A stretch of DNA of 64,000 nt from Beijerinckiaceae bacterium (GTDB lineage: Bacteria > Pseudomonadota > Alphaproteobacteria > Rhizobiales > Beijerinckiaceae). Made by a program: the position numbers and the translations under genes. The stretch is taken from NCBI GenBank assembly GCA_947478405.1, contig CANJVX010000005.1, positions 2,255 to 66,254 on the forward strand. Direction: 5' to 3'. Of the stretch, positions 31,541-57,100 are shown in pieces. Every line of letters begins with the position of its first letter. Positions within the stretch are counted from its first letter, which is position 1. Below the pieces are notes generated by a model. It saw only the letters and a list, made by a program, of their open reading frames with translations, ran no database searches and had not been told where the DNA came from.

Positions 31541-31680
31541 TAGAAGGCCACCCGTCCGATATCAATTTGGAATAGGCTTTCACTTATCGACTTTTCGTCC
31601 CGACATCTCGCTTTTCGGGACATCAGCGGCCATGTTAAAAGCTGACGATATAGACGGGCTTCGCCCCAATGGAGGACATC

Positions 31681-36597: not shown

Positions 36598-36611
36598 GAT
36601 AATGCTTCACC

Positions 36612-38803: not shown

Positions 38804-38881
38804 AAATCACGCTTTTCTAGCGTTTTTTCTATTATTCGACGGACATGTGTAGCTGGCAAGCGGAAGCTTGCTCATGTCACA

Positions 38882-39991
38882 TCACGGTTGCTTGGTCATG
38901 ACGGCCTGGATCATATCTTCGGAGCTGGCCGTATATTGGTTGAGAGCCTCTGGCGAGACAAATTGCTCCGTCACGCGCGACAAAGCGTCGATGATGGGCA
39001 TGACATCAGCGCGCGCCGGCACATCGGTTCGGCTTGGGAAGTAGCCTGCCTCCGACAAGATTTGCTGGCCTTCACGCGACAGCACAAAATCAACCATCAG
39101 CATGGCGGCGTGGGGGTGACGCGCGCCCTTGGGCACAATCATCGTGCCCACAGTGCTTGCCACAGGATCAAGCAGAACTGTGCTCACCGGCGCACCCTTC
39201 GAGGCGCTGATCAGCGGATGATGGGCAAAAATATTAAGCGCCAAACCCAATTCACCTGCAATCACACGATCAACAAGACCACGCGCGCTCGCACCACTGA
39301 GCGAAATGACATTCTGGCTTGAAAGTCGACGCAGATAAGCGTGGGCTGCCTCTTCGCCCCATTTCATCCGCAGGTTGGTGACAAACAAATCCGCACCACT
39401 GGCGCTGCCTGCATGCCAGGCCATGCGGCCTTGCCACCGCGGATCGAGAAGATCTTCATATGTCTTGGGCAAATCGGCAGATGATGTTGCTTTGGTGTTA
39501 TAGCCAATACCGAAGAAACTGCGGCGCGTCGGGGTCCAGAGGCCGTTGCGGTCACGATATCTTTCTGGAATTTCGGCGATGATCGGTGTGGCATAGGGCT
39601 GCGCAAAACCAGCCTGAACCACTGCCTCGCCAACACCTGTGCCCTCAACCAGATCGGCCACAACCTTACCCGCGCGCACTTCTGCCGAAAGCTTGGTGAA
39701 AATGCCCGCCGATTCCGCGCGCCAGTAATTCACCTTGATGAAGGGATATTTCTTCATGAAGGCTTCTGAGATGGGTCGCAGGGCCTGATTGACGATCATG
39801 GCCGAATAGAAAACCACCTCGGCTTCCGCCTTGGCGCCCACAATCAGCTTCGCCTGCCGATCCGGCCCGGCATAGGTCAGCGGATCGGCCCGGCCAGTCG
39901 CGGGCAATGCCAATGAAGCGGCCAGGATGAATGCTGTAATCGGCTGGCTCCAGCACGGCCGACAGTTTGTCCGGATCACCGGCCCCTCCAT
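38882..39991 (-). CDS. ABC substrate-binding protein (Fe3+/family-1 type), paralog
   Basis: Shares long identical stretches with 36612-37724 (VNQALRPI.EAFMKKYPF.K..YWRA...KLSAEVRA..VVADLVEGTGVGE). Hydrophobic leader. Confidence 0.75.
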   Translation of the reverse strand: MEGPVIRTNCRPCWSQPITAFILAASLALPATGRADPLTYAGPDRQAKLIVGAKAEAEVVFYSAMIVNQALRPISEAFMKKYPFIKVNYWRAESAGIFTKLSAEVRAGKVVADLVEGTGVGEAVVQAGFAQPYATPIIAEIPERYRDRNGLWTPTRRSFFGIGYNTKATSSADLPKTYEDLLDPRWQGRMAWHAGSASGADLFVTNLRMKWGEEAAHAYLRRLSSQNVISLSGASARGLVDRVIAGELGLALNIFAHHPLISASKGAPVSTVLLDPVASTVGTMIVPKGARHPHAAMLMVDFVLSREGQQILSEAGYFPSRTDVPARADVMPIIDALSRVTEQFVSPEALNQYTASSEDMIQAVMTKQP

Positions 39992-40095: not shown

Positions 40096-41208
40096 ATGAG
40101 CGACGAAGTCGCCGCCCCGCGCTATGGCATCGATGCCTATCTAGACTGGGTCAATGCCGAGGGCATGCCCGTGGTCGAGGGGGATTATGCCATCGACCTT
40201 TTTCAGGTTGAGACCGGCCCATGGGCCCGGGTAGGATGCAAGGGCGCAGCTGTTCACCTCAAGGGTCGGGGTGATTTCTGCAACATGTTCCTCTTTGAAC
40301 TGGCCCCGGGCGCGTCAAGCGCACCCCTTCGCCATATCTATGAAGATATCTATTATGTCCTCGAAGGCCATGGCTCGACGCAGGTGGAGCTGCCAGATGG
40401 CACGAAGCGCAGCTTCGAATGGTCGCCCAAATCCATGTTCTCGATTCCCATCAACATGCCGCATCGCCATTTCAATGCCGGCGGGCGTGAGCGTGCGCTT
40501 TTTGTGACAACCACAAACATGCCGCTTCTGATGAACACTTTCCACAACGACACGTTCATATTCGACAATACATTCAGCTTCCGCGACCGTATTGGCAAAG
40601 AAAACTACTGGTCGGGAGAGGGTGACTTCATCCCCATTCGTCCGGGCAATCATTTGTGGGAAACAAATTTCGTTCCTGATATGGCTAATATCAAGCTGCA
40701 TGAATATGCTGATCGGGGCGGCGGCTCCAGCAACATCAAGTTTGTTCTGGCCGATGGCATTATGTCCGGCCACATGTCTGAAATGCCTTCAGGCACCTAC
40801 AAGAAAGCCCATAGGCACGGGCCCGGGACGCATGTGATCTGCGTGACAGGCCACGGCTATTCTCTGCTTTGGTATGAAGGCGACAGTGATTTTACGCGGA
40901 TCGAATGGCAGCACGGCGTTGTCTTTCCACCATGCCAGAGCCAGATTCATCAGCACTTCAACACAAGCCTGGAGCCGGCGCGCTATCTCGCCATGGGCAT
41001 TGGTAATGTGCGCTATCCCTTCACCTTGCAGAAGCGCCAGACAATGATTGGCGAGAAAGGTGCCAAACAGCGCTCATCGGTCTCGATCAAGCAAGGCGGC
41101 AATCAGATTGAATTTGAAGATCAGGATCCGCGCGTTCACGCGCTTTGGCTCGACGAGATGCGCAAAGCGAAGATCACGCCGCGCATGGAAAAATATTTTC
41201 CGGAATAA
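40096..41208 (+). CDS. bicupin protein (gentisate-dioxygenase-like architecture)
   Basis: Two cupin barrels. The second carries AHRHGPGTHVICVTGHG and IHQHFN metal-type motifs. GGAGA RBS. Confidence 0.7.
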   Translation: MSDEVAAPRYGIDAYLDWVNAEGMPVVEGDYAIDLFQVETGPWARVGCKGAAVHLKGRGDFCNMFLFELAPGASSAPLRHIYEDIYYVLEGHGSTQVELPDGTKRSFEWSPKSMFSIPINMPHRHFNAGGRERALFVTTTNMPLLMNTFHNDTFIFDNTFSFRDRIGKENYWSGEGDFIPIRPGNHLWETNFVPDMANIKLHEYADRGGGSSNIKFVLADGIMSGHMSEMPSGTYKKAHRHGPGTHVICVTGHGYSLLWYEGDSDFTRIEWQHGVVFPPCQSQIHQHFNTSLEPARYLAMGIGNVRYPFTLQKRQTMIGEKGAKQRSSVSIKQGGNQIEFEDQDPRVHALWLDEMRKAKITPRMEKYFPE

Positions 41209-41242
41209 AAAAAGGGCCGGATCAATCCGGCCCTTTCTTTTT
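41207..41242. terminator. bidirectional rho-independent terminator shared by convergent bicupin genes
   Basis: AAAAAAA-GGGCCGGA-TCAA-TCCGGCCC-TTTCTTTTT. Confidence 0.75.
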
Positions 41243-41243
41243 G

Positions 41244-42473
41244 TCAGAAGAGATCTTTCGGCTGATCAATGCCTGCCGTTGCCTCATCATACCAGCGCGA
41301 ATCCATTCGCGAGGGTGCGCCCTCGACAGCAAGTGTCCGCTCGAATTCAGCGCGCAGAAATGCATCTTCCTCATGATAGGGAATGGCGCCGCCACCCTTC
41401 TTGATATCGATTGCACCACGATCAGTAATTTGCTCGCCAGGGCGACCAGGCTTGCGCGAGGTCGAATTATTGGGCCCAAACCAAGCGCTCAGGCGCAGCG
41501 GATCTTTGCTGACGCCAAAGTGTTGATGGAACCAGTCGCCTGCCATAGGCGCAGCTGAAACCAGACCACCAAATTCATAATCCTGTCGGCGAACCTGATC
41601 AGCCTTTCCTGCCTCCCATGGCTTCAAACCAAGCGTTTCAGGCCAAGTGAAAGTATAGCCCTTGCCTTTGAGGCAGACGAGGACAGCGGCGGACCCATGC
41701 TTATGAGCCTTTGAATAGCGGCCCGTCTCATGCTGGCCAACCCAGAGATAAAAGCGATTGCCCGCCATATGCGGTTCAATGCGCCGATAGCCAGGCGACC
41801 GGCGATTATCGAGCGGCAATTCGCAATTGATCACGTCAGGCACGATATTCGTCTTCTTCATCGCCAGCCCGCGCACCGGATCGGGTGCAATATCATCTTG
41901 CGGCGTGAAATAATCGCTTGCACCTGAATAGCGATCGGTAAAGTCGAACGGGCATTCGAAAATGAACTTCGGATTGTCCAGCAGGTTGAACATATTCGGC
42001 GCGCTGGTTCCGCAGAGCAGAATGGCCGGACTGTTCGTGGCATTGACGAAGCGATGGTAGGCATTGATCGGAATGGAGAAGAGAGAGCCCTTCTGCCACT
42101 CAAAATGCTGCTTCTTGGAATTGCTTTCCTGCCAGACTTCCGTTGAACCCCGACCTTCAATCACCATGACAATCTTTTCATAGACATGATGATCAATATT
42201 CAATGCACCACCTGGCGGGACTTCCACCACATACATGCCCCAGAGGCCTTCAGTGCCGTAAAGCTGAACATAAGTGCCGCGTCCACCAAGCCGCTTCCAC
42301 GGCTTCATCGGCAGATCGAGAACCGTCCGAACGCCAATGTCGCGATAGACCGGAACGCCTTCCGATTCCATGAACTGATCATAAGGCATGGAGGGGCGAG
42401 CAAATTTACCCAGGCCCGCCATTTTATCAGCGGTTGGTTCGTGCCAATGTGAACCTTTATCGTCATGGGGCAT
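41244..42473 (-). CDS. bicupin protein, paralog of 40096-41208
   Basis: Same two-barrel layout (SLFSIPINAYHRFVN; AHKHGSAAVLVCLKGKG; WFHQHFG). GGAGGAG RBS. No signal peptide. Confidence 0.7.
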   Translation of the reverse strand: MPHDDKGSHWHEPTADKMAGLGKFARPSMPYDQFMESEGVPVYRDIGVRTVLDLPMKPWKRLGGRGTYVQLYGTEGLWGMYVVEVPPGGALNIDHHVYEKIVMVIEGRGSTEVWQESNSKKQHFEWQKGSLFSIPINAYHRFVNATNSPAILLCGTSAPNMFNLLDNPKFIFECPFDFTDRYSGASDYFTPQDDIAPDPVRGLAMKKTNIVPDVINCELPLDNRRSPGYRRIEPHMAGNRFYLWVGQHETGRYSKAHKHGSAAVLVCLKGKGYTFTWPETLGLKPWEAGKADQVRRQDYEFGGLVSAAPMAGDWFHQHFGVSKDPLRLSAWFGPNNSTSRKPGRPGEQITDRGAIDIKKGGGAIPYHEEDAFLRAEFERTLAVEGAPSRMDSRWYDEATAGIDQPKDLF

Positions 42474-42571
42474 TTTAGTCTCCTCCCTGTTTTCTTTGCT
42501 TGTTATCGCCAGTCTATAGAGGCTGCTTATTTATTTCCAGTGTCGCACTCAAGATCATTTCGTCTCGATCC

Positions 42572-45500
42572 TCACTGGCCATCCGATATGCCTTCGCGCG
42601 CTGTCTTGTTGAAAACGAACCGCCCGAAGGCAAGTCCTATCCCGCAGACCAGCGTGATTAAAATAGCAGCAACGGCACCCGTCTCAACTGAGACTGACAA
42701 TTGGGTCGGCAAATAATTCATCACCGTTTGTAATTGTCTCATGTCCCACACCACTTTAGTGATGCCAAAACCGACGGCCAGACTGACAAGGGCGCCAATG
42801 GCAAAACCTGCGAGCGAGGGGCCGATGACATTGGGCAAGAAGAATCGCACGACAGCGCCGGGACCAGCGCCGCGGATCCGCAAGAGACCAAGCGTACGTC
42901 TATCCTCGACGTAATTGGCGTAGGCGACCGCAAAGATGCCGATAAAGGCGAGGATCAACCCGCCCAGCAGATAGATCTGCACATTCTGCCTTGCGAGGAA
43001 AATATACATGTCGGAACCAAGCCGCGCTACTTCAGTGGGCGTGTCACGCATATCCAGCGGAACGGTCCCGAGCGTGTCTCGGACATTCTGCCGTAATCTT
43101 TCAGTCGGCACGCCTGCATCTGCCTTAATCATCAACACGACGCGCGGCAAAAGAACGTCAAGCTGATCAAAGCGCGGATTGCTGGCAGACGCCACGAGAT
43201 AGGGACTCGAAGAAAAGAGATGGTTCAGATAATCTACGCGCGCACTGATGAAGCCTTCGCGGTCATTAACTGTCTTGAGCGGCAAGCCCGGCAAAAAACG
43301 CAGCGAACCGCCAAATGGCGCCCGCTCCATTTGTTGGGCCACGTTACGCCCAATCGGCATCGGCCCACCAATCGCGCGACGATAGAATTTCGTCACCGAG
43401 GACGAGCTGAGAACATCGTCACCTGACAATCGATTGATGAGTGCATCAAATGGCTCGGATTCTCCAAGCCCCTGTTCGGCATGAACAGCCGCACGATAGG
43501 CAAGCGGATCGCCTATGAGATAAATAGGCAGACCTGAAAAACCCCGATCAGGCATATAGACGCCCTCGGTAATGCCCTCGACGATAAAATCGACACTTGT
43601 AATTCCCGGCTGTGCTTTCAGCTTTGACATAAGCGGCACAAGCCGCTCTTTCAAAATATCAAGACGCTGCTTCATGCCGCCGCGCGCTTGCGCCTCGGCG
43701 GGCATCAGATCCAGCGCATTCAATGTGACTTGCAAATCGGAGCCCAATTGCGCACGTGCACCGCGCTGCGTCTTATTGTCGAACACCGCCGTCATGACGG
43801 TGGGATAAAGTGCCAGCGTCGACAACATAGCCACAATGAGCAGGAAGGACGCTGCGCGATGGCGGCGGATGCTCATATGTTTTAGTGAAGCGACCCGTAA
43901 TGGTCCAGCAAGCATAAAGGCTGCTGGTGCCATGAGCTTTGTCATCACGCTCTCGCGAGAAGCGATCAGGCTGACAAAGCCATAGACGAGTAACGGGAAT
44001 GCGATGAAGTCCAGCGCGCGATCAACTTCAAATACCCAAGGCCCGGGCACAATATCGCTGATCGACCAGCTCCCGATCCAGCCCGCAAGTTTGATCAGAC
44101 CGATAGCCAAAGCCAGCGCCTGTGAAAACCCGAAGCGTGTACCCGATGCATTGGCCTCAAATGTTGCGACACGACGTGAGGCTTCGAGCGGTGAGACACG
44201 AGACGCTTCTTGCACAAGACGCCAGCCGCTCAGCAACGCAATCAGAATGCCAATGGTCAGGAATGCGACCAGATAAAGGGGCTCCTGAATTTTCAAGGCC
44301 AAATCAAACGACGGAAGACGCCCCATGTAGAGCCACATGGGCAAGAGCGAGCCAAGGATTGCACCCGCCAAGCCGCCTAAGATGCCGCCTGCCCCAATAG
44401 CTGTGAGCATAGTGCGCGCGATATCCGCGCTTTTCACGCCACGTAATCGCAAAAGACCCAGCTTGCGACGCTCATTAAGCAAAAGCAGGCTTGCCAGATT
44501 GCCGAGCAAAATACCCGCAATGATCAGCAAGGGCAGCGAGACCAAAAGCGCAATCAGGGCAATCTTGCGGGCGATATCAGCCATACGAATAAACATCGCG
44601 CCAAGACTATGATCAACAGCGGCACTTTGCGTCATATCCTGCACACTATCGGCAATCAGCGCGCCCGTGCGGATGATGCGTGTCAGCGAACTATCAATAT
44701 CCCAACCTGAGACAAGCTTTTCACGATCAATACGAGCCAGATGTATAACCTCCGGAAAATATTTCCCGGGGTCGCCGTGCACATCGGCATGATCATGCAC
44801 ATGAATAATGCCGCGCGAAATAGCATCGAAATCATCGAGCCGTTTGAAATTATAGGGTGTCACCAGAATGAGGCCCAGCTCGGGAACAAGTGTCGGCGAA
44901 GATGTCTGCTCCATATACCAACGATTGATCTCGTTGGAATCAACGCGGATCACACGCTCAATCGGCGTCTCGACGATGATATATCCTTTTTTCTTTTGGG
45001 AGTGACTATGCGAATGACCCTCGGCGCCATGTGCATCATCGCTATCGTGATGATCATCTTCTTCGCCATCTTCCGACAGATCTTTGCGATCAACAACGAG
45101 GCGAAATTGTTTCTTGCCTTGGAGACGCAGATAGGCGTCTCCCATTTGCGCTTTTGAACCCACCAGCACCAGAACGGCACCGCCGCCCGAGGGCCGGATG
45201 TCAGGCGGCAACATGGACGGGTCGGTGGGCGACAGAAATGAAACCCATGGCGATCGGATTTGCTCGCCATCTATTTCAGGCTTTGTTGTATAGGGCAGGA
45301 TCGTACGCAGGAAATAAAGGCGTTGCGTCTTCGTAACACCTTCAACCGTTGAAATGGCATCAGCCAGCTTTGCGGAAAGACCAATTTCAGCTGTTTGGTA
45401 AACAGATATATCCCATGGCACCCGCTCGATCTGATCGGCTACATAACGCTGCATGGCATGACGCGACGTGACTGTGATCGCAGCGAGCAAAAAGACGATC

Positions 45501-45574
45501 AGCCCCGTGACCAGCGCAAAAACCGCAAAAGGACGTCGACCAAGAACGGCGTGAAGCAAGCGCGCGGGCGACAT
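42572..45574 (-). CDS. large double-FtsX-domain ABC permease (MacB/YbbP-like, type VII) with His/Asp-rich periplasmic tracts
   Basis: About 1000 aa. N-terminal TM, a ~300-aa extracytoplasmic domain, an FtsX 3-TM bundle, further TMs, a second extracytoplasmic domain and a second FtsX bundle. ATG 45574 lies 2 nt after the ATPase stop; the listed 45616 is a TTG. Confidence 0.8.
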   Translation of the reverse strand: MSPARLLHAVLGRRPFAVFALVTGLIVFLLAAITVTSRHAMQRYVADQIERVPWDISVYQTAEIGLSAKLADAISTVEGVTKTQRLYFLRTILPYTTKPEIDGEQIRSPWVSFLSPTDPSMLPPDIRPSGGGAVLVLVGSKAQMGDAYLRLQGKKQFRLVVDRKDLSEDGEEDDHHDSDDAHGAEGHSHSHSQKKKGYIIVETPIERVIRVDSNEINRWYMEQTSSPTLVPELGLILVTPYNFKRLDDFDAISRGIIHVHDHADVHGDPGKYFPEVIHLARIDREKLVSGWDIDSSLTRIIRTGALIADSVQDMTQSAAVDHSLGAMFIRMADIARKIALIALLVSLPLLIIAGILLGNLASLLLLNERRKLGLLRLRGVKSADIARTMLTAIGAGGILGGLAGAILGSLLPMWLYMGRLPSFDLALKIQEPLYLVAFLTIGILIALLSGWRLVQEASRVSPLEASRRVATFEANASGTRFGFSQALALAIGLIKLAGWIGSWSISDIVPGPWVFEVDRALDFIAFPLLVYGFVSLIASRESVMTKLMAPAAFMLAGPLRVASLKHMSIRRHRAASFLLIVAMLSTLALYPTVMTAVFDNKTQRGARAQLGSDLQVTLNALDLMPAEAQARGGMKQRLDILKERLVPLMSKLKAQPGITSVDFIVEGITEGVYMPDRGFSGLPIYLIGDPLAYRAAVHAEQGLGESEPFDALINRLSGDDVLSSSSVTKFYRRAIGGPMPIGRNVAQQMERAPFGGSLRFLPGLPLKTVNDREGFISARVDYLNHLFSSSPYLVASASNPRFDQLDVLLPRVVLMIKADAGVPTERLRQNVRDTLGTVPLDMRDTPTEVARLGSDMYIFLARQNVQIYLLGGLILAFIGIFAVAYANYVEDRRTLGLLRIRGAGPGAVVRFFLPNVIGPSLAGFAIGALVSLAVGFGITKVVWDMRQLQTVMNYLPTQLSVSVETGAVAAILITLVCGIGLAFGRFVFNKTAREGISDGQ

Positions 45575-45576
45575 GG

Positions 45577-46278
45577 TCACGACACGCGCTCGACAATTCC
45601 GTCGCGCATGTAGCAAACGCGCGGAAAGACTTCGACAACTTTTGGATCGTGCGATGCGACAATCACCGTCTTGTTGCGCTGGGTAGCCAGATCGATCAGA
45701 ATTTTGGTGATGATCTGCGCATTATGGCTGTCAAGATTACCCGTTGGCTCATCTGCCAAAATAATCGGCGGGTCATTCACAAGTGCCAGACACACGGCCA
45801 CACGCTGCTGCTCGCCGCCAGACAATTCCTCAGGCCGCTTGAACCCCTTGGCCTTGAGACCGACACTATCGAGTAGATCCTCAGCGCGATGCTTGCGCTC
45901 CTCAGCTGGAAGCCCCGCCATCAACATGGGTAGTTCAAGATTTTCAAAAGCTGAAAGGCTTGGAATGAGATTGAAGAACTGGAAGACGAAGCCGATATTA
46001 TGAAGCCTATAATTTTCGAGCTGGCGTTCATTCATGGTCGCAACATTGAGCCCGCCGGCAAAAACATCGCCCTTGGTCGGGCGATCCATTCCACCCAGGA
46101 GATTGAGGATTGTTGACTTCCCGCAACCCGACGGACCCATCAAAGCAACCGCCTCACCCGGATTTACGCTCCACGAAAGATTTTCCAGCGCTGTGACGCG
46201 CTGCGCGGTCGTCTCATAATATTTGGACACATTTTCCAGCCGAACGCTGGCCTTGTCTTGATGACTCATTGTCAGCAT
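45577..46278 (-). CDS. ABC ATP-binding protein, LolD/MacB/FtsE type
   Basis: GPSGCGKST, LSGGEQQRV, ILADEPTGNLD, ASHD. ATG 46278 lies 4 nt after the upstream stop (ATG 46269 is the alternative). Confidence 0.9.
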   Translation of the reverse strand: MLTMSHQDKASVRLENVSKYYETTAQRVTALENLSWSVNPGEAVALMGPSGCGKSTILNLLGGMDRPTKGDVFAGGLNVATMNERQLENYRLHNIGFVFQFFNLIPSLSAFENLELPMLMAGLPAEERKHRAEDLLDSVGLKAKGFKRPEELSGGEQQRVAVCLALVNDPPIILADEPTGNLDSHNAQIITKILIDLATQRNKTVIVASHDPKVVEVFPRVCYMRDGIVERVS

Positions 46279-46282
46279 CCGA

Positions 46283-48091
46283 TCAGGGCTTGAAATATTC
46301 ATAAGTGCCATTGTTGATTTTGTTGGCCCATTGCGTCCAATAGGCACCGGGATTGCGTGCATAATCCTCATATTTGCCAGGCGCATTAATGCCGGGAAGC
46401 GCGGGGATATAATCACGGCGCAAGATCACATCAGGATTGCCATAGCGCGAAGCCAGAGCCCGCACGCCGACATCGCTCAACGCGGACAAGCCACCATGCT
46501 CAACAAGTGTCGCCCATTGATCAAGGTCACGCAGACGCAATTGATAGGTGGGCAGAATATTATGCTGATGCATGGAATGGCCACGCGGCACATTATTCTT
46601 GATCGCAAATTCATTGGTCTCTTTCGACCATTCACGCGTGTCATTGGGACCTTGCGCGGCTTCTGCACCAAAGGCCCAGTGAATCACACCCGCCGCGTTG
46701 CGTTCTGACAAATTATTGCCTTCGAGAACTTCTCCGGGGTGTTTAAAATATTTCGGATTGGTTCCCATCCCAGCTTCAAACAACCACCAATATCCAGGCT
46801 TGGGTGCATAGGGCCATTGCAGATTCTGAGTGCCGGGATAGGACTGGAAGAGGTTCAAGCCTTCGCCATACAGGCCGCCACCTTTAATATCGGCTATTTT
46901 ACCGCCCCTGATTTTCACTTCAATGCGCGGATAGGTCGCTGCATGGCTTGATGTGGACGCAACCACGCCATTCACTTCTGGCAAAATGAGCGGCTGATAA
47001 TTGTCGATAACGGCCGGAAATTCGACAAGCGAATAGGGAAAACGTCCAGACGCCTGTGCCGGGAACATGTAGAGATGGCCCTGATTGTAAATACCGGCAG
47101 CCCAGCTCTTGGCTTCTTTCTCAGACACATCATAGCCGAAGGCTGTGCCTTCGGGATCGGTGACTTCGGCGCGGTCGGCAAAACCAATCGGCTCAATGGT
47201 TTTCGTTTCAATCATGCGCCAGACGTCTGAGGGAAAGTCCGGCACCTGGCTCATCAGATCGTAAAGATCAAGATAGGTGTAATTGCCCAGAAGCTTTTCG
47301 CCATGATGGCGCACAAATTTACGCGTATTGGTGCGACCACCCGAGCGCCAGACAATCCAATCAATTTCCGGGTGCTTGTCGAGCCAAGCCACCAACCGAT
47401 CGGGGACTTCTTTCACATAATCTTTTGCAAGTTGCGCATAATGCGCATTGTCATATTTTGGCGTCGTCCATGTCGCCTCAAAGAGTTCACGATCCTGTTC
47501 GCGCACCCATTCGCGGCCTTTTTCGGGGTCGGGCATAATGCCGGTAAAATTGAAGAAATATTCCAGCTCGCGCTGACCATCGCTGATCGTATAGGTGCGA
47601 ATGCCGACGCGGAAATCGAGATATTGTTCTTCGCTCATTCCGAGCAAATCCCAGATGGTCAGCACAGTTGTCTTGACACCGCGCTCTTCCATCGCTCGCT
47701 TGATTGCAGTCTGCACCATCATATTGGGCCGTGTGTCACGGATTTCACCGACCACAATGAGCAAATGCTTGCCTGCATCGACAAGACCCAGCGGCGCGCG
47801 ACCCTGACTTTGGCGGGAAGCCGCCCGTGCGGCCGGCATCAATTGGTCTACGGTATCGGGGCGCTTGAGATAAGACGGAAAAACGGGCGCTGGCACAGGG
47901 CTTTTTGCACCTGGACCAATCAATCCATACTCCTTGCGACGCGCGGCCATATCCGCTGGATCCCATGGCGCATACGCCTGTTTGCGCTCTCCAATCGGCT
48001 GACCCTTTTCAGCGCGGACGAGATCGACGGAAGCCAGCGTCGCCAGTAAGCTGGCGGAAGTGAGAAGTTGAAGGATCCTGCTGCGAAACAT
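46283..48091 (-). CDS. secreted ~600-aa protein, M29-aminopeptidase/NicX-like fold inferred (paralog B)
   Basis: GGAGA RBS 7 nt before ATG 48091. Signal peptide MFRSRILQLLTSASLLATLASVDLVRA. Motifs WLFEAGMGTNPKY, GVIHWAFG, HSMHQHN. The gene is certain; the function is inferred. Confidence 0.6.
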   Translation of the reverse strand: MFRSRILQLLTSASLLATLASVDLVRAEKGQPIGERKQAYAPWDPADMAARRKEYGLIGPGAKSPVPAPVFPSYLKRPDTVDQLMPAARAASRQSQGRAPLGLVDAGKHLLIVVGEIRDTRPNMMVQTAIKRAMEERGVKTTVLTIWDLLGMSEEQYLDFRVGIRTYTISDGQRELEYFFNFTGIMPDPEKGREWVREQDRELFEATWTTPKYDNAHYAQLAKDYVKEVPDRLVAWLDKHPEIDWIVWRSGGRTNTRKFVRHHGEKLLGNYTYLDLYDLMSQVPDFPSDVWRMIETKTIEPIGFADRAEVTDPEGTAFGYDVSEKEAKSWAAGIYNQGHLYMFPAQASGRFPYSLVEFPAVIDNYQPLILPEVNGVVASTSSHAATYPRIEVKIRGGKIADIKGGGLYGEGLNLFQSYPGTQNLQWPYAPKPGYWWLFEAGMGTNPKYFKHPGEVLEGNNLSERNAAGVIHWAFGAEAAQGPNDTREWSKETNEFAIKNNVPRGHSMHQHNILPTYQLRLRDLDQWATLVEHGGLSALSDVGVRALASRYGNPDVILRRDYIPALPGINAPGKYEDYARNPGAYWTQWANKINNGTYEYFKP

Positions 48092-48105
48092 CTGTCCATC
48101 TCCGC

Positions 48106-49908
48106 TCAAGGCTTGAAGTAAGTGTTCTTGCCGCCCTCAATGCTGGCAGCCCATTTTGTCCAATATGCGCCAGGATCGCGCGCATATTGATCGTAAGTGC
48201 CCGGTGCATTGATGCCCGGAATTTCGGGCACATAATCGCGGTTCAACACGCGATCGGGATTGCCATAGCGAGAGGCCAGCGCGCGCACATAAGTATCTTT
48301 CAGAGACGTCAACCCGCCATGCTCAAGCAACGTGATCCATTGATCGAGATCGCGCACGCGCACCTGATAGGTCGGCAGGAGATTATGCTGATGCATGGAA
48401 TGCCCCTTCGGGACATTGTGCTTGGTGGCAAAATCTTCTGTCTCTTGCGCCCAAGGCCCGACCACGTCCGGCCCCATCGCAACCTCGGCGCCAAAGGCCC
48501 AATGAATCACGCCAGCGACATTACGCTCTGAGAGATTATTGCCCTCATTCACTTCACCCGGATGTTTGAAATATTTCGGGTTAGTCCCCATGCCGGCTTC
48601 ATAAAGCCACCAATAACCGGGCTTTTTCTGCATTGGCCACGTAAGCTCTTTCGTGCCAGGATAATTCTGGAAGAGCTTCAAGCCCTCGCCATAAAGGCCG
48701 CCACCCTTGATATCGGCAATCAATCCGTCCTTCACGCGCACTTCAATGCGCGGATAAGTAGCTGCATGGCTAGAGGTGGAGGCAATAATGCCCTGCACTT
48801 CCGCCTGAACCGGTGGAATGTAACGGCCATTCATGACCGGATATTCCACCATAGAATAGGGCGTGCGCCCCGTTGCCTGCGGCGGGAACATGTAAAGATG
48901 CCCTTGGTTGTAGACACCTTCAGCCCAACCCTTGGCTGCTTCTTCGGAAATGTCATAACCGAAAGCTGTACCCTCAGGATCGGTGACCTCTGCGCGATCG
49001 ACATACGCCAGTGGTTCGATTGTTTTCGATTCCACCAACCGCCAAACATCCGCCGGGAAATCGGGTACCTGGCCCATCAGATCAAACAGGTCGACATAGG
49101 TGTAATTGCCCAAAAACCGCTCGCCATGCTGCTTCAGCATTTTGCGCGTATTGGGGCGATTACCTGAGCGCCAGACGATCCATGTGATTTCGGGATGCTT
49201 ATCAAGCCAAGCGTTGAGTTTGGCTGGAACAAGCTCGTTATAATCCTTGGCGAGCTGCGAAAAACGCGGGTCTTCAAATTTCGGCGCGGCCCAGGTTGCC
49301 TGATACAGCTCAGGGTCTTGCTGGCGCACCCAGTCACGCCCCTTGGGGGGATCGGGTACAAAGCCCGTAAAGTTGAAGAAATATTCGAGCTCGCGCTGAC
49401 CATCTGCAATGGAATAGGTGCGGATGCCATCGCGATAATTCTGAAATTCAACTTCCGTCAGTCCCAACAAGTCCCAAATGGTGAGAACAGTGGTCTTGAC
49501 GCCGCGCTCTTCCATGGCGCGCTTGATCGCTTCCTGCACCATCATATTGGGCTTGGAATCACGCACCTCACCCACAACAATCAGCAATTGCTTGCCAGCT
49601 TCAACAAGGCCAAGCGGCGTCCGTCCACCCGTCTGGCGTGAGGCCGAGCGAGCAGACGGCATCAGCTTGTCGAGGGAATCTGGCTTCTTCAAATAAGAAG
49701 GAAAGGAGGGCGCCGGGAAAGCTGCCGTTGTGCCTGGACCGATCAAGCCCTGCTCTTGCCGCCGCTTGACCATATCGGCTGGGTTCCAGGGGGCATAAAG
49801 CGCCCTGCGCTCGGCCAGAGGTTGACCTTTTTCGGCCAAAGCCACACCCGAAAGTGCAAAAAAAGCAGAAAAAACAGCCGTAAAAAGCGCGCGCGGACGT
49901 GCTGTCAT
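48106..49908 (-). CDS. secreted ~600-aa protein, M29-aminopeptidase/NicX-like fold inferred (paralog A)
   Basis: Signal peptide MTARPRALFTAVFSAFFALSGVALA. Roughly 70 percent identical by eye to 46283-48091 over the full length, with the same three motifs. Confidence 0.6.
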   Translation of the reverse strand: MTARPRALFTAVFSAFFALSGVALAEKGQPLAERRALYAPWNPADMVKRRQEQGLIGPGTTAAFPAPSFPSYLKKPDSLDKLMPSARSASRQTGGRTPLGLVEAGKQLLIVVGEVRDSKPNMMVQEAIKRAMEERGVKTTVLTIWDLLGLTEVEFQNYRDGIRTYSIADGQRELEYFFNFTGFVPDPPKGRDWVRQQDPELYQATWAAPKFEDPRFSQLAKDYNELVPAKLNAWLDKHPEITWIVWRSGNRPNTRKMLKQHGERFLGNYTYVDLFDLMGQVPDFPADVWRLVESKTIEPLAYVDRAEVTDPEGTAFGYDISEEAAKGWAEGVYNQGHLYMFPPQATGRTPYSMVEYPVMNGRYIPPVQAEVQGIIASTSSHAATYPRIEVRVKDGLIADIKGGGLYGEGLKLFQNYPGTKELTWPMQKKPGYWWLYEAGMGTNPKYFKHPGEVNEGNNLSERNVAGVIHWAFGAEVAMGPDVVGPWAQETEDFATKHNVPKGHSMHQHNLLPTYQVRVRDLDQWITLLEHGGLTSLKDTYVRALASRYGNPDRVLNRDYVPEIPGINAPGTYDQYARDPGAYWTKWAASIEGGKNTYFKP

Positions 49909-50192
49909 GGAAAAAATCTCCCCAGATGCCAGCGTCTCAAGGCGCTGTTTGCACTCATTATAGCAAGGCTGGAGCAGGAGTCAGGCCCTGATCGCAAGGT
50001 CTGCTGCACCGCAGCAACGCTTCCCCATTTTGGGGAAAGGGGGGCGGGGGCGCGGATAGCTCTTTAGCTAGATGCGGAGACATACCCATGTTAGCGTTTG
50101 AAAAAAGGGTATGGGGGGTGCCTTTCGTTGCTGGCGTCAAGAGCCGCGACAATCCAGCCCCAGATCCCAGAACATCAAGAAGAGGAAGAAAA

Positions 50193-50933
50193 ATGAATCT
50201 CCCGCCCAACCGCATGTATGGCCATCGCGCTCGTATCGGCTACACATCCCCGCCCCTGACGACGGAAGTCTTTCCGTACGAATTCTACAAGATCGTCCCC
50301 GATGGCGTGTCGCTAGTGGTGACGAGCCTGGCCATTGTTGTGCGATCGAAAGAAGAGATTGATCGCTCCTATGACATCAGCATGCAGGCCGCGCGCGAAA
50401 TGGCGGCCTCCAAATGCGATCTCATCATGCTTGGCGGCGTTCCGATCAACCTGTCACGCGGCACAAAGAATGCCGAGCAAATGGTGGATGATCTGGAAGC
50501 CGAGCTTGGTGTGAAGGTCTCGACCAGCCAGACAGCGCAAATCAAAGCCGCGCGTGCGCTGGGCGCGAAGAAAATGGTTGTCGCTCATCCTTATGCGGAA
50601 GGCGATACGACGCGCATCTCGTCTTACAATGAACATATGCATTGCGAGACGCTAGGCGCTATGGCCTTCGGCTCCGCCTTCAATCAGATTGGCCGCATTC
50701 CGCGCGATGGTGCCCTGCAGCTTGGCCGCGCCTTGATGAAGAAATATCCTGATGCGGATACAATCATCATGCCCTCTCCCCATTGGCCCACGATTGAAAG
50801 TATCGAGCCGCTTGAGCGCGAGTTCGGGGTGAACGTGATGACCGCGCTGCAGGTGATTGTCTGGGATGCCCTGCGACGTTGCGGCATCAATGACAAAATC
50901 GAAGGCTATGGTCGCCTGTTCAGCGAATTCTGA
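50193..50933 (+). CDS. Asp/Glu-racemase-superfamily protein (arylmalonate decarboxylase / maleate isomerase-like), paralog 1
   Basis: AGAGGAAG RBS before ATG 50193. YGHRARIGYTSPP N-terminus and C-terminal EGYGRLF, as in AMDase/maleate isomerases. Confidence 0.75.
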   Translation: MNLPPNRMYGHRARIGYTSPPLTTEVFPYEFYKIVPDGVSLVVTSLAIVVRSKEEIDRSYDISMQAAREMAASKCDLIMLGGVPINLSRGTKNAEQMVDDLEAELGVKVSTSQTAQIKAARALGAKKMVVAHPYAEGDTTRISSYNEHMHCETLGAMAFGSAFNQIGRIPRDGALQLGRALMKKYPDADTIIMPSPHWPTIESIEPLEREFGVNVMTALQVIVWDALRRCGINDKIEGYGRLFSEF

Positions 50934-50969
50934 AAATCAGCGACACCAATCAAGGCAAAGAGGTGAAGG

Positions 50970-51998
50970 ATGAAACGTATTGCAACAGCCCTTATGGTCT
51001 GCGTCACATCTTCGCCTGTTCTCGCCGATCCTGTTGCAGACTTCTATCGCGGAAAATCGATCACCATGCTCGTCGCCAGCGGTGTTGGCGGCGGGTATGA
51101 CACTTATGCGCGAGTATTTGCACGCTTTGCCATCAAACATATTCCGGGCAATCCAAACATCATTGCCAAAAACATGCCTGCAGCCGGTGGGCTTGCTGCC
51201 GCCAGCGCGCTTTACAACAATGCTGATCGGGACGGTTTGAGCATTGGAGCCTTTGCCAATGTCTCGACGCTCGATCCATTGTTCGGTAATCCCGGTGCGC
51301 GTTACGATTCACGCAAATTCGGCTGGATCGGATCCATCGGCAAATTGCAAAATGTCTGTGCCACATGGCACACGAGCCCGGTCAAGACGATTGATGATGC
51401 CAAAAAACGCGAAGTAATTGTCGCGGGCGCTGGCGCCTCATCAAACACGGCGGTCGTCCCGCGCATCGTCAACGAACTTCTGGGAACGCGATTCAAGATC
51501 GTCTCGGGCTATGATCCAGCAGGCGGCCTTACAATGGCTGTCGAGAGTGGCGAGGCCGAGGGCATTTGCGGACTCTCTTGGTCCACGATGAAAGCTTCTC
51601 GTCCGGATTGGATTTCAGGCAAGAAACTCAATGTGATTGTGCAGATGAGTATGGAGCGGCTACCCGAATTGCCTGATGTACCAAGTGTGCTCGATCTCAT
51701 CACTGATCCTGAACGCAAGCGCGTTCTAGAGTTAATTCTCATCCGCCAAGAAACCGGCCGCCCCTTCGCCAGCGCCCCAGATACGCCCAAAGAACGGCTG
51801 GCTGCTCTGCGCACAGCTTTCGATCAAACGATGAAAGATACGGAATTTCTGGCTGAAGCAGAGCGCAATCAAATGGAAATCGAGCCGCTAACCGGCACCC
51901 AAATCGAAGATTTTCTGACTAAGGCCTATGCGTCTGCGCCCGAAGTCATCGCAAAAGCCGCTGCATTGGTCGAGCCAACCGGCGCAAAAACACGCTGA
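50970..51998 (+). CDS. Bug/TctC-family substrate-binding protein
   Basis: Signal peptide, then FYRGKSITMLVASGVGGGYDTYARVFARFAIKHIPGNPNIIAKNMPAAGG. Confidence 0.85.
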   Translation: MKRIATALMVCVTSSPVLADPVADFYRGKSITMLVASGVGGGYDTYARVFARFAIKHIPGNPNIIAKNMPAAGGLAAASALYNNADRDGLSIGAFANVSTLDPLFGNPGARYDSRKFGWIGSIGKLQNVCATWHTSPVKTIDDAKKREVIVAGAGASSNTAVVPRIVNELLGTRFKIVSGYDPAGGLTMAVESGEAEGICGLSWSTMKASRPDWISGKKLNVIVQMSMERLPELPDVPSVLDLITDPERKRVLELILIRQETGRPFASAPDTPKERLAALRTAFDQTMKDTEFLAEAERNQMEIEPLTGTQIEDFLTKAYASAPEVIAKAAALVEPTGAKTR

Positions 51999-52006
51999 GG
52001 AGAAAC

Positions 52007-52738
52007 TCAGCCCTTCGGCAATTGGGAGAGAAGTTGCCCATAGCCTTCGCGCGGCGCGTGGACACGCAAACGCTGCAAAATTTCCCATGCTGTTGCGACA
52101 CCCGGATGAAGGACGGGGATGCCTAGATCCCGTTCCAGCGTTTCCACAATATCCAGCATGCGCAATTTGCCACCCTGAATGTAAATACCCTCTGCCTGAG
52201 GATGTTTCAAAACAGCTTGCTTGATGAGCCGATAGATCTCCTGCGAAGATAAGAGCCCGACATCTTCCCATCGACCAGGCATGCACTCGAGGGCTAAAAT
52301 ATCAAAGCCAGCATTCGTGAAATAGCGATGGACGGGTGCGGGATCTTCAAAATCGTAACCAATGCCAACAAAGCGCTTTACATGAAGCGCCTTCAACGCG
52401 CGCACCTGATTGGAGCCTGAGGTAAAAATAGGAATGCCCCAGCGTTTTTCCCACGCCTCGATCAATGCACATTCTGCCCGATAACCAATCAACATGAAGG
52501 GCGGCGTTCCAGCTGGGTGAATGAGATCCACACCATCTTCTGCAAGTTCGGCAATCTTCTCTTCATAGGAGGGAATCGCCCCACCAAATTCTTGCAGTGT
52601 TCCATGACGAATATTGTTGAACAGCGGCAAAATGCCGATGCCCTCAGGCAGCATGCGGATCAATTCTTCGAGAGAACCAGACCCCTTTGTCGGCTTGACC
52701 GTGCCAACCATTCCCCGCCATGCGCCACCAAATCCCAT
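52007..52738 (-). CDS. Asp/Glu-racemase-superfamily protein (AMDase/maleate isomerase-like), paralog 2
   Basis: GGAGAG before ATG 52738. C-terminal REGYGQLL and GIPVLHPGVATAWEILQRL align with the family. The listed longer start adds a non-homologous extension. Confidence 0.7.
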   Translation of the reverse strand: MGFGGAWRGMVGTVKPTKGSGSLEELIRMLPEGIGILPLFNNIRHGTLQEFGGAIPSYEEKIAELAEDGVDLIHPAGTPPFMLIGYRAECALIEAWEKRWGIPIFTSGSNQVRALKALHVKRFVGIGYDFEDPAPVHRYFTNAGFDILALECMPGRWEDVGLLSSQEIYRLIKQAVLKHPQAEGIYIQGGKLRMLDIVETLERDLGIPVLHPGVATAWEILQRLRVHAPREGYGQLLSQLPKG

Positions 52739-52834
52739 TTCACTCTCCAGAACTCGCACCACATGCTTGCCAGCCACGATACTCTCGCACCATAATTCGG
52801 AGACCAGCAAGATTCCACAAGACTGGAGACAAAG

Positions 52835-53863
52835 ATGAGCCCTCACCTCAAACGCTATCTGAGCGGCGCCCTCGTACTAACAGCGCTCACAAGCCCAGTC
52901 TTTGCCGAGCCCCTTGCAGATTTCTATTCCGGCAAAATGCTGTCGCTGGTGATCGGCTATCCACCAGGCGGCGGATTTGATTCATCCGCACGTATATTGA
53001 TGCGCCATATGGGAAAACACATTCCAGGACAGCCCGGCATGGTCCCCCGAAATATGCCGGGTGCGGGCAGTCTTGTGGCAACCAACCATCTCTATAATCT
53101 TGCTGCAAAGGACGGGACCGAATTTGGCATTATCGGCGGATCAGTTCCATTTGGCCCATTATGGAGCCGCGATGGCGTCAAATTTGAAGCCACCAAATTC
53201 AATTGGCTTGGCAGCATGGACCGGTGGACAGGCATTGCCTTGATGTGGGGGCAAGCACCGATCACAAGCTTCGACAAGGCGCTGACACAAGAGGTTACTG
53301 TCGGGGCAACCGGCAGCGGCGATGTGACCAGCATCTATCCACGCGTGCTCAATGCCTTGATCAAGACGCGCTTCAAGGTAGTTGGTGGATATCAGGGTAC
53401 GTCTGACCTCAGTCTCGCTATGGAGCGGGGTGAAATTCATGGACGTCTTGGTTGGTGCTGGGATTGCGTGAAAGCTGAAAAGCCGGACTGGATTGCAAGC
53501 GACAAGATAAAGATCATGATTCAACTTGGCATGGTGAAGGATCCTGAATTGCCGGGCGTTCCCCATATTTTCGATCTCGTCAAAACGGATGAGGACCGCC
53601 AAATCGTGAAGCTGGTCTTCGGTAGCCAAGATATGGCACGCCCCTTTGTCGCGCCCCCTGGTGTCCCCCATGATCGCGTCGTCGCATTGCGCAAGGCTTT
53701 TGAAGCCACGCTCAGCGACAAAGACTTTTTGGCAGAGGCCCAGCGTTTGAACATGCCCATTAAACTTACATCTGCCGCTGAAATCGAAAAACTGATTGCC
53801 GATGTCTATGCCACACCGCAACCTGTGATTGATCGCGCCGCCGCCGTCATCGGGAGCAACTGA
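52835..53863 (+). CDS. Bug/TctC-family substrate-binding protein
   Basis: Signal peptide, then FYSGKMLSLVIGYPPGGGFDSSARILMRHMGKHIPGQPGMVPRNMPGAGS. Confidence 0.85.
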   Translation: MSPHLKRYLSGALVLTALTSPVFAEPLADFYSGKMLSLVIGYPPGGGFDSSARILMRHMGKHIPGQPGMVPRNMPGAGSLVATNHLYNLAAKDGTEFGIIGGSVPFGPLWSRDGVKFEATKFNWLGSMDRWTGIALMWGQAPITSFDKALTQEVTVGATGSGDVTSIYPRVLNALIKTRFKVVGGYQGTSDLSLAMERGEIHGRLGWCWDCVKAEKPDWIASDKIKIMIQLGMVKDPELPGVPHIFDLVKTDEDRQIVKLVFGSQDMARPFVAPPGVPHDRVVALRKAFEATLSDKDFLAEAQRLNMPIKLTSAAEIEKLIADVYATPQPVIDRAAAVIGSN

Positions 53864-53864
53864 A

Positions 53865-54581: not shown

Positions 54582-54588
54582 GCGCGCG

Positions 54589-55596: not shown

Positions 55597-55631
55597 GCGA
55601 TTACTCCGCCGCAGGACGCCATGCACCCGCT

Positions 55632-56012: not shown

Positions 56013-56049
56013 GCTCTTATTCCTTTGTCAGAAATGGTATCTGTCTTTC

Positions 56050-57069: not shown

Positions 57070-57100
57070 GTTTTGCCTCCCCTCCTGCTGACGTCGCACG

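Follow-up and report, generated by a model that had tools for sequence, protein, structure and literature searches.

A conserved operon encoding a YbbP-like type VII ABC transporter and two predicted NicX-like, histidine-rich proteins in a Beijerinckiaceae bacterium

The stretch of DNA analysed here, referred to as the window, comprises 64,000 nucleotides of an uncultured freshwater Beijerinckiaceae bacterium (assembly GCA_947478405.1, contig CANJVX010000005.1, positions 2,255 to 66,254). Its minus strand carries four genes packed head to tail, namely two paralogous genes for proteins of about 600 residues (P600a and P600b), an ATP-binding cassette (ABC) ATPase gene and a permease gene. We describe these genes and their conservation in other genomes, and we discuss the possibility that they encode an ATP-driven motor with exchangeable enzyme partners.

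48106..49908, minus strand: P600a (600 aa), taken from the open reading frame (ORF) list; predicted to be secreted, His-rich, of an unannotated family and with a NicX-like predicted fold
46283..48091, minus strand: P600b (602 aa from its ATG), paralog of P600a according to the ORF list and 70% identity
45577..46278, minus strand: ABC ATPase (233 aa) of the LolD/MacB/FtsE/YbbA type according to Pfam, NCBIfam and the motifs in its translation
42572..45574, minus strand: permease (1000 aa) of the duplicated FtsX type with ten transmembrane (TM) helices, a YbbP-like type VII ABC subunit according to Pfam, hydropathy, AlphaFold2 (AF2) and Foldseek

A sequence-only reading of the window had described these genes as an operon of four packed minus-strand genes, and the ORF list and the junctions agree with it. 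The TGA of P600a is followed by a 13-nt spacer, GCGGAGATGGACAG, with a GGAGA ribosome-binding site (RBS) and then by the ATG of P600b at 48091, which was taken as the start codon instead of the merely mechanical TTG start at 48109 in the ORF list. Only 4 nt separate the TGA of P600b from the ATG of the ATPase gene, and 2 nt the TGA of the latter from the ATG of the permease gene; the RBS and both gaps can be read directly at the junctions. Independent gene callers, applied to identical contigs from two freshwater-lake metagenomes, returned the same lengths for P600a (600 aa), P600b (602 aa) and the permease (1000 aa), and an ATPase of 241 or 230 aa as compared to the 233 aa read in the window. 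The genes are real, since homologs of P600 exist in at least 522 clusters at 90% identity, all of them labelled "hypothetical", and the permease has at least 347 homologs.

For the ATPase, the earlier assignment to the LolD/MacB type is in agreement with both profile libraries: the Pfam model ABC_tran is matched with an E value of 3.5e-33, and the best NCBIfam models are LolD (1.3e-65), MacB (1.1e-57), FtsE (4.3e-57) and YbbA (2.5e-50), every one of them under its equivalog cut-off. Walker A, Q-loop, signature, Walker B with its Glu residue and H-loop are intact in the translation. The permease had been described as a protein of ~1000 aa with two FtsX modules and two large extracytoplasmic domains. 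This description was reproduced by two Pfam FtsX stretches and by hydropathy and the AF2 helices, which give a 4 + 2 + 4 topology with all ten TM helices in one polypeptide and with periplasmic domains at approximately residues 36–337 and 596–864, between TM1–2 and TM7–8. The AF2 model (predicted local distance difference test (pLDDT) 81, predicted template modelling score (pTM) 0.77) features long stalk helices at residues 3–50, 293–367, 571–610 and 856–890. Its top Foldseek match is Escherichia coli YbbP (9ge7_A, of the YbbAP structures 9GE7/9GE6; E 2.5e-16, TM-scores 0.41/0.48), followed by BceB (E 1e-11 to 1e-13), LolE/LolC, MacB, HrtB and YtrF; the matches to YbbP, BceB, LolE/C, MacB and HrtB all have a probability of 1.0. 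The label "MacB/FtsEX-type" given in the sequence-only reading is right at the superfamily level, and the specific architecture predicted by the model is YbbP-like, not FtsX-like.

FtsEX, which had been put forward as an analogue, is likewise a type VII ABC system, and it acts on extracytoplasmic hydrolases by mechanotransmission and without transport (FtsEX-EnvC, PcsB, RipC and CwlO). FtsX, however, functions in cell division as a dimer of single 4-TM modules, each with a small X-lobe/PLD domain, and has coiled-coil adaptor partners, whereas the window permease is a duplicated 10-TM protein. FtsX structures are absent from the top 50 Foldseek matches of the permease, and P600 does not contain a long coiled coil. 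FtsEX with its single 4-TM module and coiled-coil partners fits worse than YbbAP.

Among the permease homologs the periplasmic domains are conserved as strongly as the TM core. Two loops of periplasmic domain 1 are rich in histidine residues, a feature that, to our knowledge, is found in no known type VII system.

44990..45076, minus strand: loop A of permease periplasmic domain 1 (aa 167–195), EDGEEDDHHDSDDAHGAEGHSHSHSQ, a disordered His/Asp/Glu-rich insert with pLDDT below 50
44738..44818, minus strand: loop B of permease periplasmic domain 1 (aa 253–279), SRGIIHVHDHADVHGDPGKYFPEVIHL, a conserved His-rich beta-hairpin

Loop A varies in length and contains at least three His residues in 57 of 110 permease homologs. 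For loop B the same holds in 106 of 110; in A2, H266 is almost invariant and H278 is invariant. The core of this hairpin reads SRGIIHVHDHADVHGD...IH. The composition of the two loops points to a role in metal handling.

The two P600 proteins share 70% identical residues (84% positives) in a gap-free alignment of 593 aa. In a neighbour-joining tree, P600a and P600b fall into separate orthologous clades that are common to related metagenome-assembled genomes (MAGs), which indicates that the duplication is old. An old tandem duplication with two intact copies of about 70% identity is what the first inspection of the sequence had suggested. In the same tree other clades show independent sets of P600 paralogs, and solo copies group in clades of their own. 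Both N-termini consist of a positively charged n-region, a hydrophobic core and an AxA-type site (GVALA and LVRA, each followed by EK).

49834..49908, minus strand: predicted Sec signal peptide of P600a (aa 1–25), MTARPRALFTAVFSAFFALSGVALA followed by EK, read from the sequence; AF2 pLDDT below 50 at residues 1–24
48011..48091, minus strand: predicted Sec signal peptide of P600b (aa 1–27), ...LASVDLVRA followed by EK, read from the sequence

P600a and P600b are thus presumably exported, and the Sec, TAT (twin-arginine translocation) or lipoprotein signals borne by P600 relatives support this assumption. The family comprises 605 clusters at 50% identity in an exhaustive hidden Markov model (HMM) search, and the wider superfamily includes secreted members as well as cytoplasmic members of ~470–500 aa. 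Neither P600a nor P600b matches a Pfam model even at E values up to 10 or any NCBIfam model; searches of the PDB with the single sequences and with the profiles A1 and A3 returned nothing relevant, a Pfam search with ten distant superfamily members and with isolated catalytic domains returned nothing, and tblastn of P600a against 72,556 plasmids gave no match. Pfam-A negatives are uninformative for NicX-like proteins, since in a control the local Pfam-A copy missed NicX itself, with neither PF26233 nor PF02073 being found for a query sequence that had been verified at 100% identity against 7CN3. Precomputed annotations derive from a newer Pfam release that includes PF26233 ("NicX"); they list this family for none of 120 P600 homologs and as faint matches for some cytoplasmic members of the sister branch.

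The AF2 model of P600a (pLDDT 84, pTM 0.85) has low-confidence loops exactly around H337 and E437–K445. Compared by Foldseek with the PDB it yields three significant matches, all of them NicX (7cn3/7cup; E 2.6e-7 to 3.8e-5, probability 1.0), so that the 2,5-dihydroxypyridine 5,6-dioxygenases NicX/Hpo (PDB 7CN3, 7CUP) are the sole significant structural neighbours, with a two-domain architecture that is predicted for P600 as well. The superposition of the whole model is weak (Foldseek TM-scores 0.30/0.44, root-mean-square deviation 9.5 Å over 500 columns). Alignments of three P600 profiles with NicX by hhalign are collinear and pair vRitdPeGTD with vrSkaGSD, RIEVxVxxGxIxxIxGGG with RITLEIEKGFITGIHGG, GTNPK with GLQPR and ERxxaGviH with ARafyGnfl; their probability of 1.5–9% is not significant and makes them unusable as proof of homology. 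The motif blocks follow each other in equal order in P600 and NicX, from a GTD-like strand through beta-G-beta-GG, [H/E]xGxGx[Q/N]P and Arg...G to PxHx[D/H]. We consider a NicX-like fold the best-supported description of P600 on the basis of these models; membership of P600 in the NicX family or among the M29 peptidases is not established. Of the M29/NicX fold guessed from the sequence, the NicX part is favoured by the significant Foldseek matches at modest TM-scores, by the motif order and by the faint PF26233 matches in the sister branch. The M29 part is not supported: P600 shows no Pfam match to PF02073 (Peptidase_M29) at E values up to 10, and M29 aminopeptidases are absent from the top 50 Foldseek matches of P600a.

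The residues that presumably form the active site are found in the C-terminal part of the proteins and in positions ahead of it.

48385..48600, minus strand: catalytic-motif region of P600a (aa 437–508) with E437-A-G-M-G-T-N-P-K445, E461-R462, H469-W-A-F-G and H503-S-M-H506-Q-H508, from motif conservation in 124 sequences
46562..46777, minus strand: counterpart of the catalytic-motif region in P600b, by equivalence to P600a aa 437–508

The motifs EAGMGTNPKY, GVIHWAFG and HSMHQH, which had been pointed out before, occur in both paralogs. Conservation was counted over 124 superfamily sequences, and the near-invariant positions are D310 (113 sequences), H337 (116), H381 (119), E/D437 (108), K445 (110), E/D461 (116), R462 (112), H469 (116), H503 (120), H506 (119), H508 (115) and D/E529 (112). 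Six near-invariant His residues are thus accompanied by Asp, Glu, Lys and Arg residues. Binuclear sites of M29 enzymes are built from Glu, Glu, His, His and Asp ligands, and the spacing of ExGxGxN, HxxxG and HxH in P600 may resemble that of M29 (AmpS, AmpT, PepS; clan MQ), with E437, H469 and H506-x-H508 as putative counterparts of these ligands. P600 has HxH where M29 has HxD, and nothing points to a peptidase function.

NicX holds one Fe(II) by His265, Ser302, His318 and Asp320, the last of which is positioned by Arg293 (PMC7910607); for Hpo the motif is H-X52-H-X-D (PMC3831237). An equivalence of the metal-ligand blocks, as proposed from the sequence, is not supported for NicX, since the iron ligands are not conserved as such: H-X52-H-X-D is missing from P600, and the corresponding blocks hold E/D437, H469 and H503-x-x-H506-x-H508, in an alignment that is statistically unreliable at the level of single residues. 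A conserved Arg beside the metal site is found in both (R462 in P600, R293 in NicX). That R462 is kept but the ligand set otherwise differs from that of NicX, being far more His-rich, suggests a distinct, perhaps binuclear, centre in P600. NicX is a cytoplasmic hexamer of 350-aa subunits with mononuclear Fe(II), whereas P600 has 600 aa, i.e. ~250 extra residues, and is predicted to be secreted; nicC-, nicD- or nicF-like genes are not conserved near the P600 loci. BTG13, a dioxygenase with four His residues and a carboxylated Lys, was considered as a model for the His- and Lys-rich site and dismissed; it is absent from the Foldseek matches, and its paper just cites NicX as another example.

These results bear on the idea that a MacB-like pump exports a bacteriocin-like or RiPP-like (ribosomally synthesised and post-translationally modified) peptide that M29-like aminopeptidases would trim. 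The ATPase scores well against models of bacteriocin- and darobactin-export ATPases, and the sequence-only reading saw a resemblance of the P600 motifs to M29. Those ATPase matches are, however, generic and far below the cut-offs, neither a precursor peptide nor a modifying enzyme is conserved nearby, and M29 structures do not appear among the Foldseek matches. NicX and Hpo contain an AmpS-like domain and lack aminopeptidase activity (PMC3831237). We regard peptide export and processing as scarcely credible.

To learn how general the association of the genes is, one genome per GTDB species was scanned, and 73 P600 loci, all of them from MAGs, were obtained (locus labels of the form Lnnn used below refer to these). 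They come from Beijerinckiaceae, Hyphomicrobiales, Xanthobacteraceae, several Gammaproteobacteria, Burkholderiales, Binatia/"delta" and Acidobacteriota. ATPase and permease genes adjoin P600 in 57 of the 73 loci (tblastn), with 1–5 copies of P600; among the other 16, seven are cut by contig ends and nine are genuine solo copies, most of them accompanied by a linked locus elsewhere in the genome. At least eight gene orders occur (P, P600; A, ATPase; M, permease): PAM (15 loci), PPAM (13), MAP (8), PMAP (7), MAPP (3), PPMA (2), PPMAPP and others up to PPPMAPP. A linkage that outlasts such shuffling is strong evidence of functional coupling, and it strongly backs the earlier proposal of a genetically tied partner, which is predicted to be periplasmic. 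The reverse check led to the same result, as the most distant permeases (41–43% identity), one of them from a Verrucomicrobiota MAG, are again flanked by ATPase and P600 genes.

When all neighbouring ORFs were clustered, P600, ATPase and permease were the only universal families; a universal fourth gene coding for an adaptor, outer-membrane factor, precursor peptide, regulator or metallochaperone was not found in this clustering. TctC proteins, TonB receptors, CopCD/YcnI/DUF305 and amidohydrolases were discarded as universal partners, each being confined to particular clades. A mirror-tree comparison showed that P600 divergence follows the divergence of the periplasmic domains when the TM core is controlled for (partial r 0.57, permutation p 0.0005); the converse comparison gave a partial r of 0.12 (p 0.06).

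Two explanations of the linkage do without an enzyme that is served by the transporter. According to the first, ABC proteins and P600 are pathway neighbours that never touch: the transporter would extract or expel a compound, e.g. a toxic amphipathic intermediate, in the manner of HrtBA or BceAB, while P600 would act independently on the same compound class, and linkage would reflect co-regulation only. Tight linkage alone is indeed no proof of contact, solo copies of P600 exist, and HrtBA and BceAB, both among the structural neighbours of the permease, work without a soluble periplasmic partner. The window permease, however, has two large, highly conserved YbbP-like periplasmic domains, which in type VII systems typically engage a partner (PMC12646458), the divergence of P600 co-varies with that of these domains, and a MacA/TolC-type adaptor or another candidate for the partner is not conserved nearby. 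We consider this explanation quite improbable. The second would make P600 a receptor that binds a ligand or metal like a substrate-binding protein (SBP) and delivers cargo to, or signals through, the ABC proteins. It accounts for the 1–5 paralogs per transporter and for the orphan copies, both typical of SBPs, and for the predicted periplasmic location; against it stand the lack of any match to an SBP fold, an enzyme as sole significant structural neighbour, an invariant constellation of His, Asp, Glu, Lys and Arg that looks catalytic, and cytoplasmic relatives in ordinary catabolic operons. As is established, MacB-type permeases do not have a transmembrane import pathway (PMC5985334). A receptor function appears very improbable.

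The known system that comes closest is YbbAP-TesA, described in 2025, so that the earlier statement that nothing comparable is known is outdated. The 2:1:1 complex has the periplasmic hydrolase TesA bound between the periplasmic domains of YbbP, and YbbAP was proposed to extract hydrophobic substrates for TesA (PMC12646458). One 10-TM (4 + 2 + 4) permease with a pair of periplasmic domains is common to both systems, as are a LolD-like ATPase, presumably in two copies in the P600 system too, and a genetically linked partner that is a secreted enzyme or, for P600, is predicted to be one. The differences are substantial. Compared to YbbP the window permease shows 12% identity and TM-scores of 0.41–0.48, is 200 aa longer and carries the His-rich loops in periplasmic domain 1. 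Its putative partner is a predicted NicX-like metalloprotein of 600 aa in 1–5 paralogs, whereas TesA is a 20-kDa SGNH esterase; P600 has another predicted fold without a match to SGNH or Lipase_GDSL models, and no TesA-like gene is conserved in the loci. The P600 genes lie within the operon, whereas the TesA gene is divergently transcribed, and the P600 system is known only from uncultured bacteria. A description of such a P600-ABC system was not found in the literature.

We assume, with a probability of roughly 0.4, that the four genes encode a YbbAP-TesA-like complex of transporter and enzyme in which the motor presents a compound to exchangeable NicX-like metalloenzymes. Two copies of the ATPase would power one pseudo-dimeric 10-TM type VII permease that has no transmembrane substrate channel, and binding and hydrolysis of ATP would lead to large movements of the two periplasmic domains (mechanotransmission). 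P600a and P600b, as Sec-exported, His-rich metalloenzymes with a NicX-like two-domain fold, would be the motor's interchangeable partners in the periplasm. The motor would present them with a compound from the membrane or the periplasm, which they would cleave or hydrolyse at a metal centre formed by H337, H381, H469, H503, H506 and H508, with D310, E437, E461, K445 and R462 also taking part. Several lines of evidence argue for such a complex. The best structural match of the permease is YbbP, with which it shares ten TM helices, two periplasmic domains and stalk helices; these domains match the TM core in conservation; and the partial r of 0.57 links them to P600. Linkage is conserved across shuffled gene orders and recurs with the distant permeases, no other gene family is universal in the loci, and the gaps of 13, 4 and 2 nt suggest translational coupling. 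That P600 is an enzyme is indicated by NicX as sole significant structural neighbour and by the crowding of near-invariant His, Asp, Glu, Lys and Arg positions in its sequence. The precedent of YbbAP-TesA and the catabolic genes that surround the loci of several clades are in agreement with this picture.

Some observations weigh against an enzyme-coupled motor of this kind. The similarity to NicX is weak and the ligand set of P600 is unlike that of NicX, so that the chemistry is a guess. A substrate cannot be named, and the neighbourhoods vary among clades. The mirror-tree signal may stem from alike evolutionary rates of periplasmic proteins and not from contact. The 1–5 P600 paralogs per transporter and the nine solo copies are more in keeping with a one-to-many relationship than with a fixed 1:1 complex. 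Finally, a hand-over of substrate does not explain the conserved His-rich loops in periplasmic domain 1, which suggest metal handling.

The last point leads to a different function for the same proteins, in which the motor matures P600 instead of supplying its substrate. The His/Asp/Glu-rich loops would capture Fe, Cu, Ni or Zn, and ATP-driven motion would open apo-P600, load the six-His site or switch the enzyme on, in parallel to the MoxR-AAA+/VWA proteins of the cytoplasmic sister branch. Loop B has at least three His residues in 106 of the 110 permeases, and the variable His/acidic insert of loop A is typical of metal-handling proteins. Six His residues are near-invariant in P600, and the AF2 loops at H337 and E437–K445 are of low confidence, as if they became ordered on metal binding. 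One transporter for 1–5 linked paralogs, together with solo paralogs elsewhere, resembles the behaviour of a chaperone and its clients. In L039 and L074, cytoplasmic relatives of P600 have CbbQ/NorQ-type AAA+ and VWA genes immediately behind them, and gene-fusion calls hint at this neighbourhood in further places; the non-heme FeB of NO reductase is put in place by NorQ/NorD (PMC9976466, PMC13036017). YcnI, CopCD, DUF305 and DUF1007 genes flank the module in one Beijerinckiaceae clade. Chaperone-mediated delivery of metals in the periplasm has a precedent in NosL with NosDFY for N2O reductase (PMC8457098).

These arguments for metal loading are countered by others. Metal delivery is not known for any type VII ABC system. 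Copper genes surround the module in a single clade (9 loci) and are missing from the others, and a general link of the cytoplasmic relatives to CbbQ/VWA had to be rejected, as it is valid for one sub-branch only and more distant cytoplasmic relatives lack it. For the His-rich loops, binding of a substrate in complex with a metal or regulation of the motor is equally conceivable. In the MoxR-AAA+/VWA systems (NorQ/NorD, CbbQ/CbbO, CoxD/E) and in NosDFY-NosL, ATP-driven remodelling or metal delivery likewise serves a client metalloenzyme, and Nos works in the periplasm, but none of these protein families is related to the type VII ABC fold, and the analogy concerns function only. Overall, we consider metal loading or activation somewhat unlikely, yet it is a serious rival of the enzyme-coupled motor. 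A bolder version appears distinctly unlikely to us. In it, a type VII ABC motor would for the first time be found to drive metallation or activation across the envelope, with ATP-driven His-rich domains loading or unlocking a six-His, possibly binuclear, centre in Sec-exported NicX-like enzymes; the system would do in the periplasm what the MoxR-AAA+/VWA chaperones (NorQD, CbbQO) do for the cytoplasmic branch.

The enzyme-coupled motor that we favour would operate in genomic surroundings that are mostly catabolic across clades, with genes for cupins, extradiol dioxygenases, LigAB, a TAT-exported IorAB-type Mo-hydroxylase together with a Rieske/LigXa oxygenase and an SBP, amidohydrolases and TonB receptors. 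In the window the operon is accompanied by bicupins, an extradiol dioxygenase, an MR/MLE cycloisomerase and an SBP-dependent importer. Two further features border the operon.

49957..49984, minus strand: promoter-like site, CTGACT-16 nt-TATAAT with extended TG, the best consensus match in 41000–50300 (10/12)
41244..42473, minus strand: bicupin (409 aa) with its own RBS, beginning 98 nt past the permease stop

The promoter-like site lies ~50 nt upstream of the P600a start codon and is a consensus match alone. The sole strong terminator near the operon is located beyond the bicupin gene at 41211–41236, and the bicupin gene may therefore be co-transcribed with the operon in the window genome. It is nevertheless outside the conserved module, as its linkage is kept in the closest relatives only and is rearranged there; the cupin and SBP genes beside the operon were rejected as parts of the module because they are conserved in these relatives alone, in rearranged order. 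The region 40096–42473 contains two convergent bicupin genes (370 and 409 aa) that weakly resemble gentisate or 5-aminosalicylate dioxygenases and share the terminator, a strong bidirectional hairpin (AAAGGGCCGGATCAATCCGGCCCTTT).

Farther downstream, at 34861–39991 on the minus strand, an SBP-dependent importer cluster consists of a fused double BPD_transp_1 permease (34861–36597), an SBP (36612–37724), the MR/MLE-type cycloisomerase (37721–38803) and a second SBP (38882–39991). PhnS-like matches are weak, far below the cut-offs and uninformative about SBP specificity; weakly PhnS-like SBPs of this class recur near P600 in L008, L038, L039, L067, L068, L084 and L085. A LysR regulator of unusual length (30287–31540, 417 aa) with two HTH_1 stretches, a glyoxalase/extradiol-dioxygenase-type protein (31669–32628) and a luciferase-like monooxygenase (33733–34845) strengthen the impression that the window is a catabolic island. 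On the other side of the operon, at 50088–57099, Amdase-like genes of the Asp/Glu-racemase superfamily (50088–50933, plus strand; 52007–52846, minus strand; 53829–54581, plus strand, the last named by similarity only) alternate with binding proteins of 342–349 aa. The 342-aa proteins at 50970–51998 and 52835–53863 are both under the Pfam TctC threshold. The former, used as query Bug342, is related to TctC/Bug loci (tblastn), and weak TctC matches are found at 54589–55626 and 56050–57099.

Some loci in other genomes deserve mention. A cytoplasmic relative of P600 (~470–490 aa, 30% identity) is encoded within L039:570–6247, a region directly upstream of a permease-ATPase-P600 module (L039:6310–11710), and within L074:3550–12506. 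It keeps the motifs GTNPK, GVIHFGFG and HxxHxHN and stands in an operon with the order SBP, fused BPD_transp_1 permease, ABC ATPase, NicX-like protein, CbbQ/NorQ-type AAA+ and VWA protein of 720–730 aa. This is an uncharacterised importer-enzyme-chaperone cluster of Burkholderiales MAGs, and the wider cytoplasmic branch includes matches named as Actinobacteria. In the Beijerinckiaceae clade with copper genes (L018:15477–16106, L019:6891–9700 and 7–9 related loci), YcnI (DUF1775) and a CopC-CopD fusion are divergently encoded upstream of P600 with DUF1007 beside them, and a DUF305 gene follows 6 nt past the permease stop; these genes may be a hint to copper or mere clade synteny. In a gammaproteobacterial clade (L081:5424–18769, L042:11975–14751), TonB-dependent receptors, a PrmA-like methyltransferase and Amidohydro_3 flank the module, with a CDF cation-efflux gene nearby, and solo P600 paralogs of the same genomes adjoin a 737-aa Amidohydro_3 protein (L037:11877–14090). 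In a Usitatibacter MAG (L084:3520–8575), genes for an SBP, a Rieske/LigXa_C oxygenase and an IorAB-type molybdenum hydroxylase come after the module, and the large subunit of the hydroxylase has a twin-arginine signal (SRRAFLSASGALVV...LPGCA); the pair of Rieske/LigXa oxygenase and SBP also adjoins the cytoplasmic NicX-like gene in L074.

Two observations concern the records themselves. L079:1–11088 is a near-perfect inverted duplication with a permease-ATPase-P600 fragment on each arm around two GFA-domain genes, probably an assembly artefact of the Verrucomicrobiota MAG. The lake MAG records of L021, L023, L027, L043, L053 and L055 have organism names that are not plausible ('Klebsiella pneumoniae', 'Rhizobium sp. 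Q54'), whereas by their P600 and permease sequences they belong with environmental Gamma- and Alphaproteobacteria; the source records are likely to be mislabelled in their taxonomy.

What defines a type VII ABC system is its periplasmic partner, and only a handful of these systems are understood (MacAB-TolC, LolCDE-LolA, FtsEX-EnvC and, since 2025, YbbAP-TesA). Neither the class of motor nor the idea of an enzyme as partner is new, in contrast to the partner family with its His-rich site and to the His-rich periplasmic domain. As a possible second enzyme-coupled YbbP-like system, the P600 module could be used to find out how generally "extract and degrade" applies, or whether motors of this type can mature periplasmic metalloenzymes as well. 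It represents a widespread and strictly conserved three-component module with a wholly unannotated partner family, for which no usable Pfam or NCBIfam model exists, and is known only from MAG lineages of freshwater, soil and wastewater. P600 would thereby add a new His-rich branch with secreted and cytoplasmic members to the little-explored NicX fold, which bears on the catabolism of aromatic compounds and N-heterocycles in uncultured bacteria, and hundreds of "hypothetical proteins" would receive names and testable roles.

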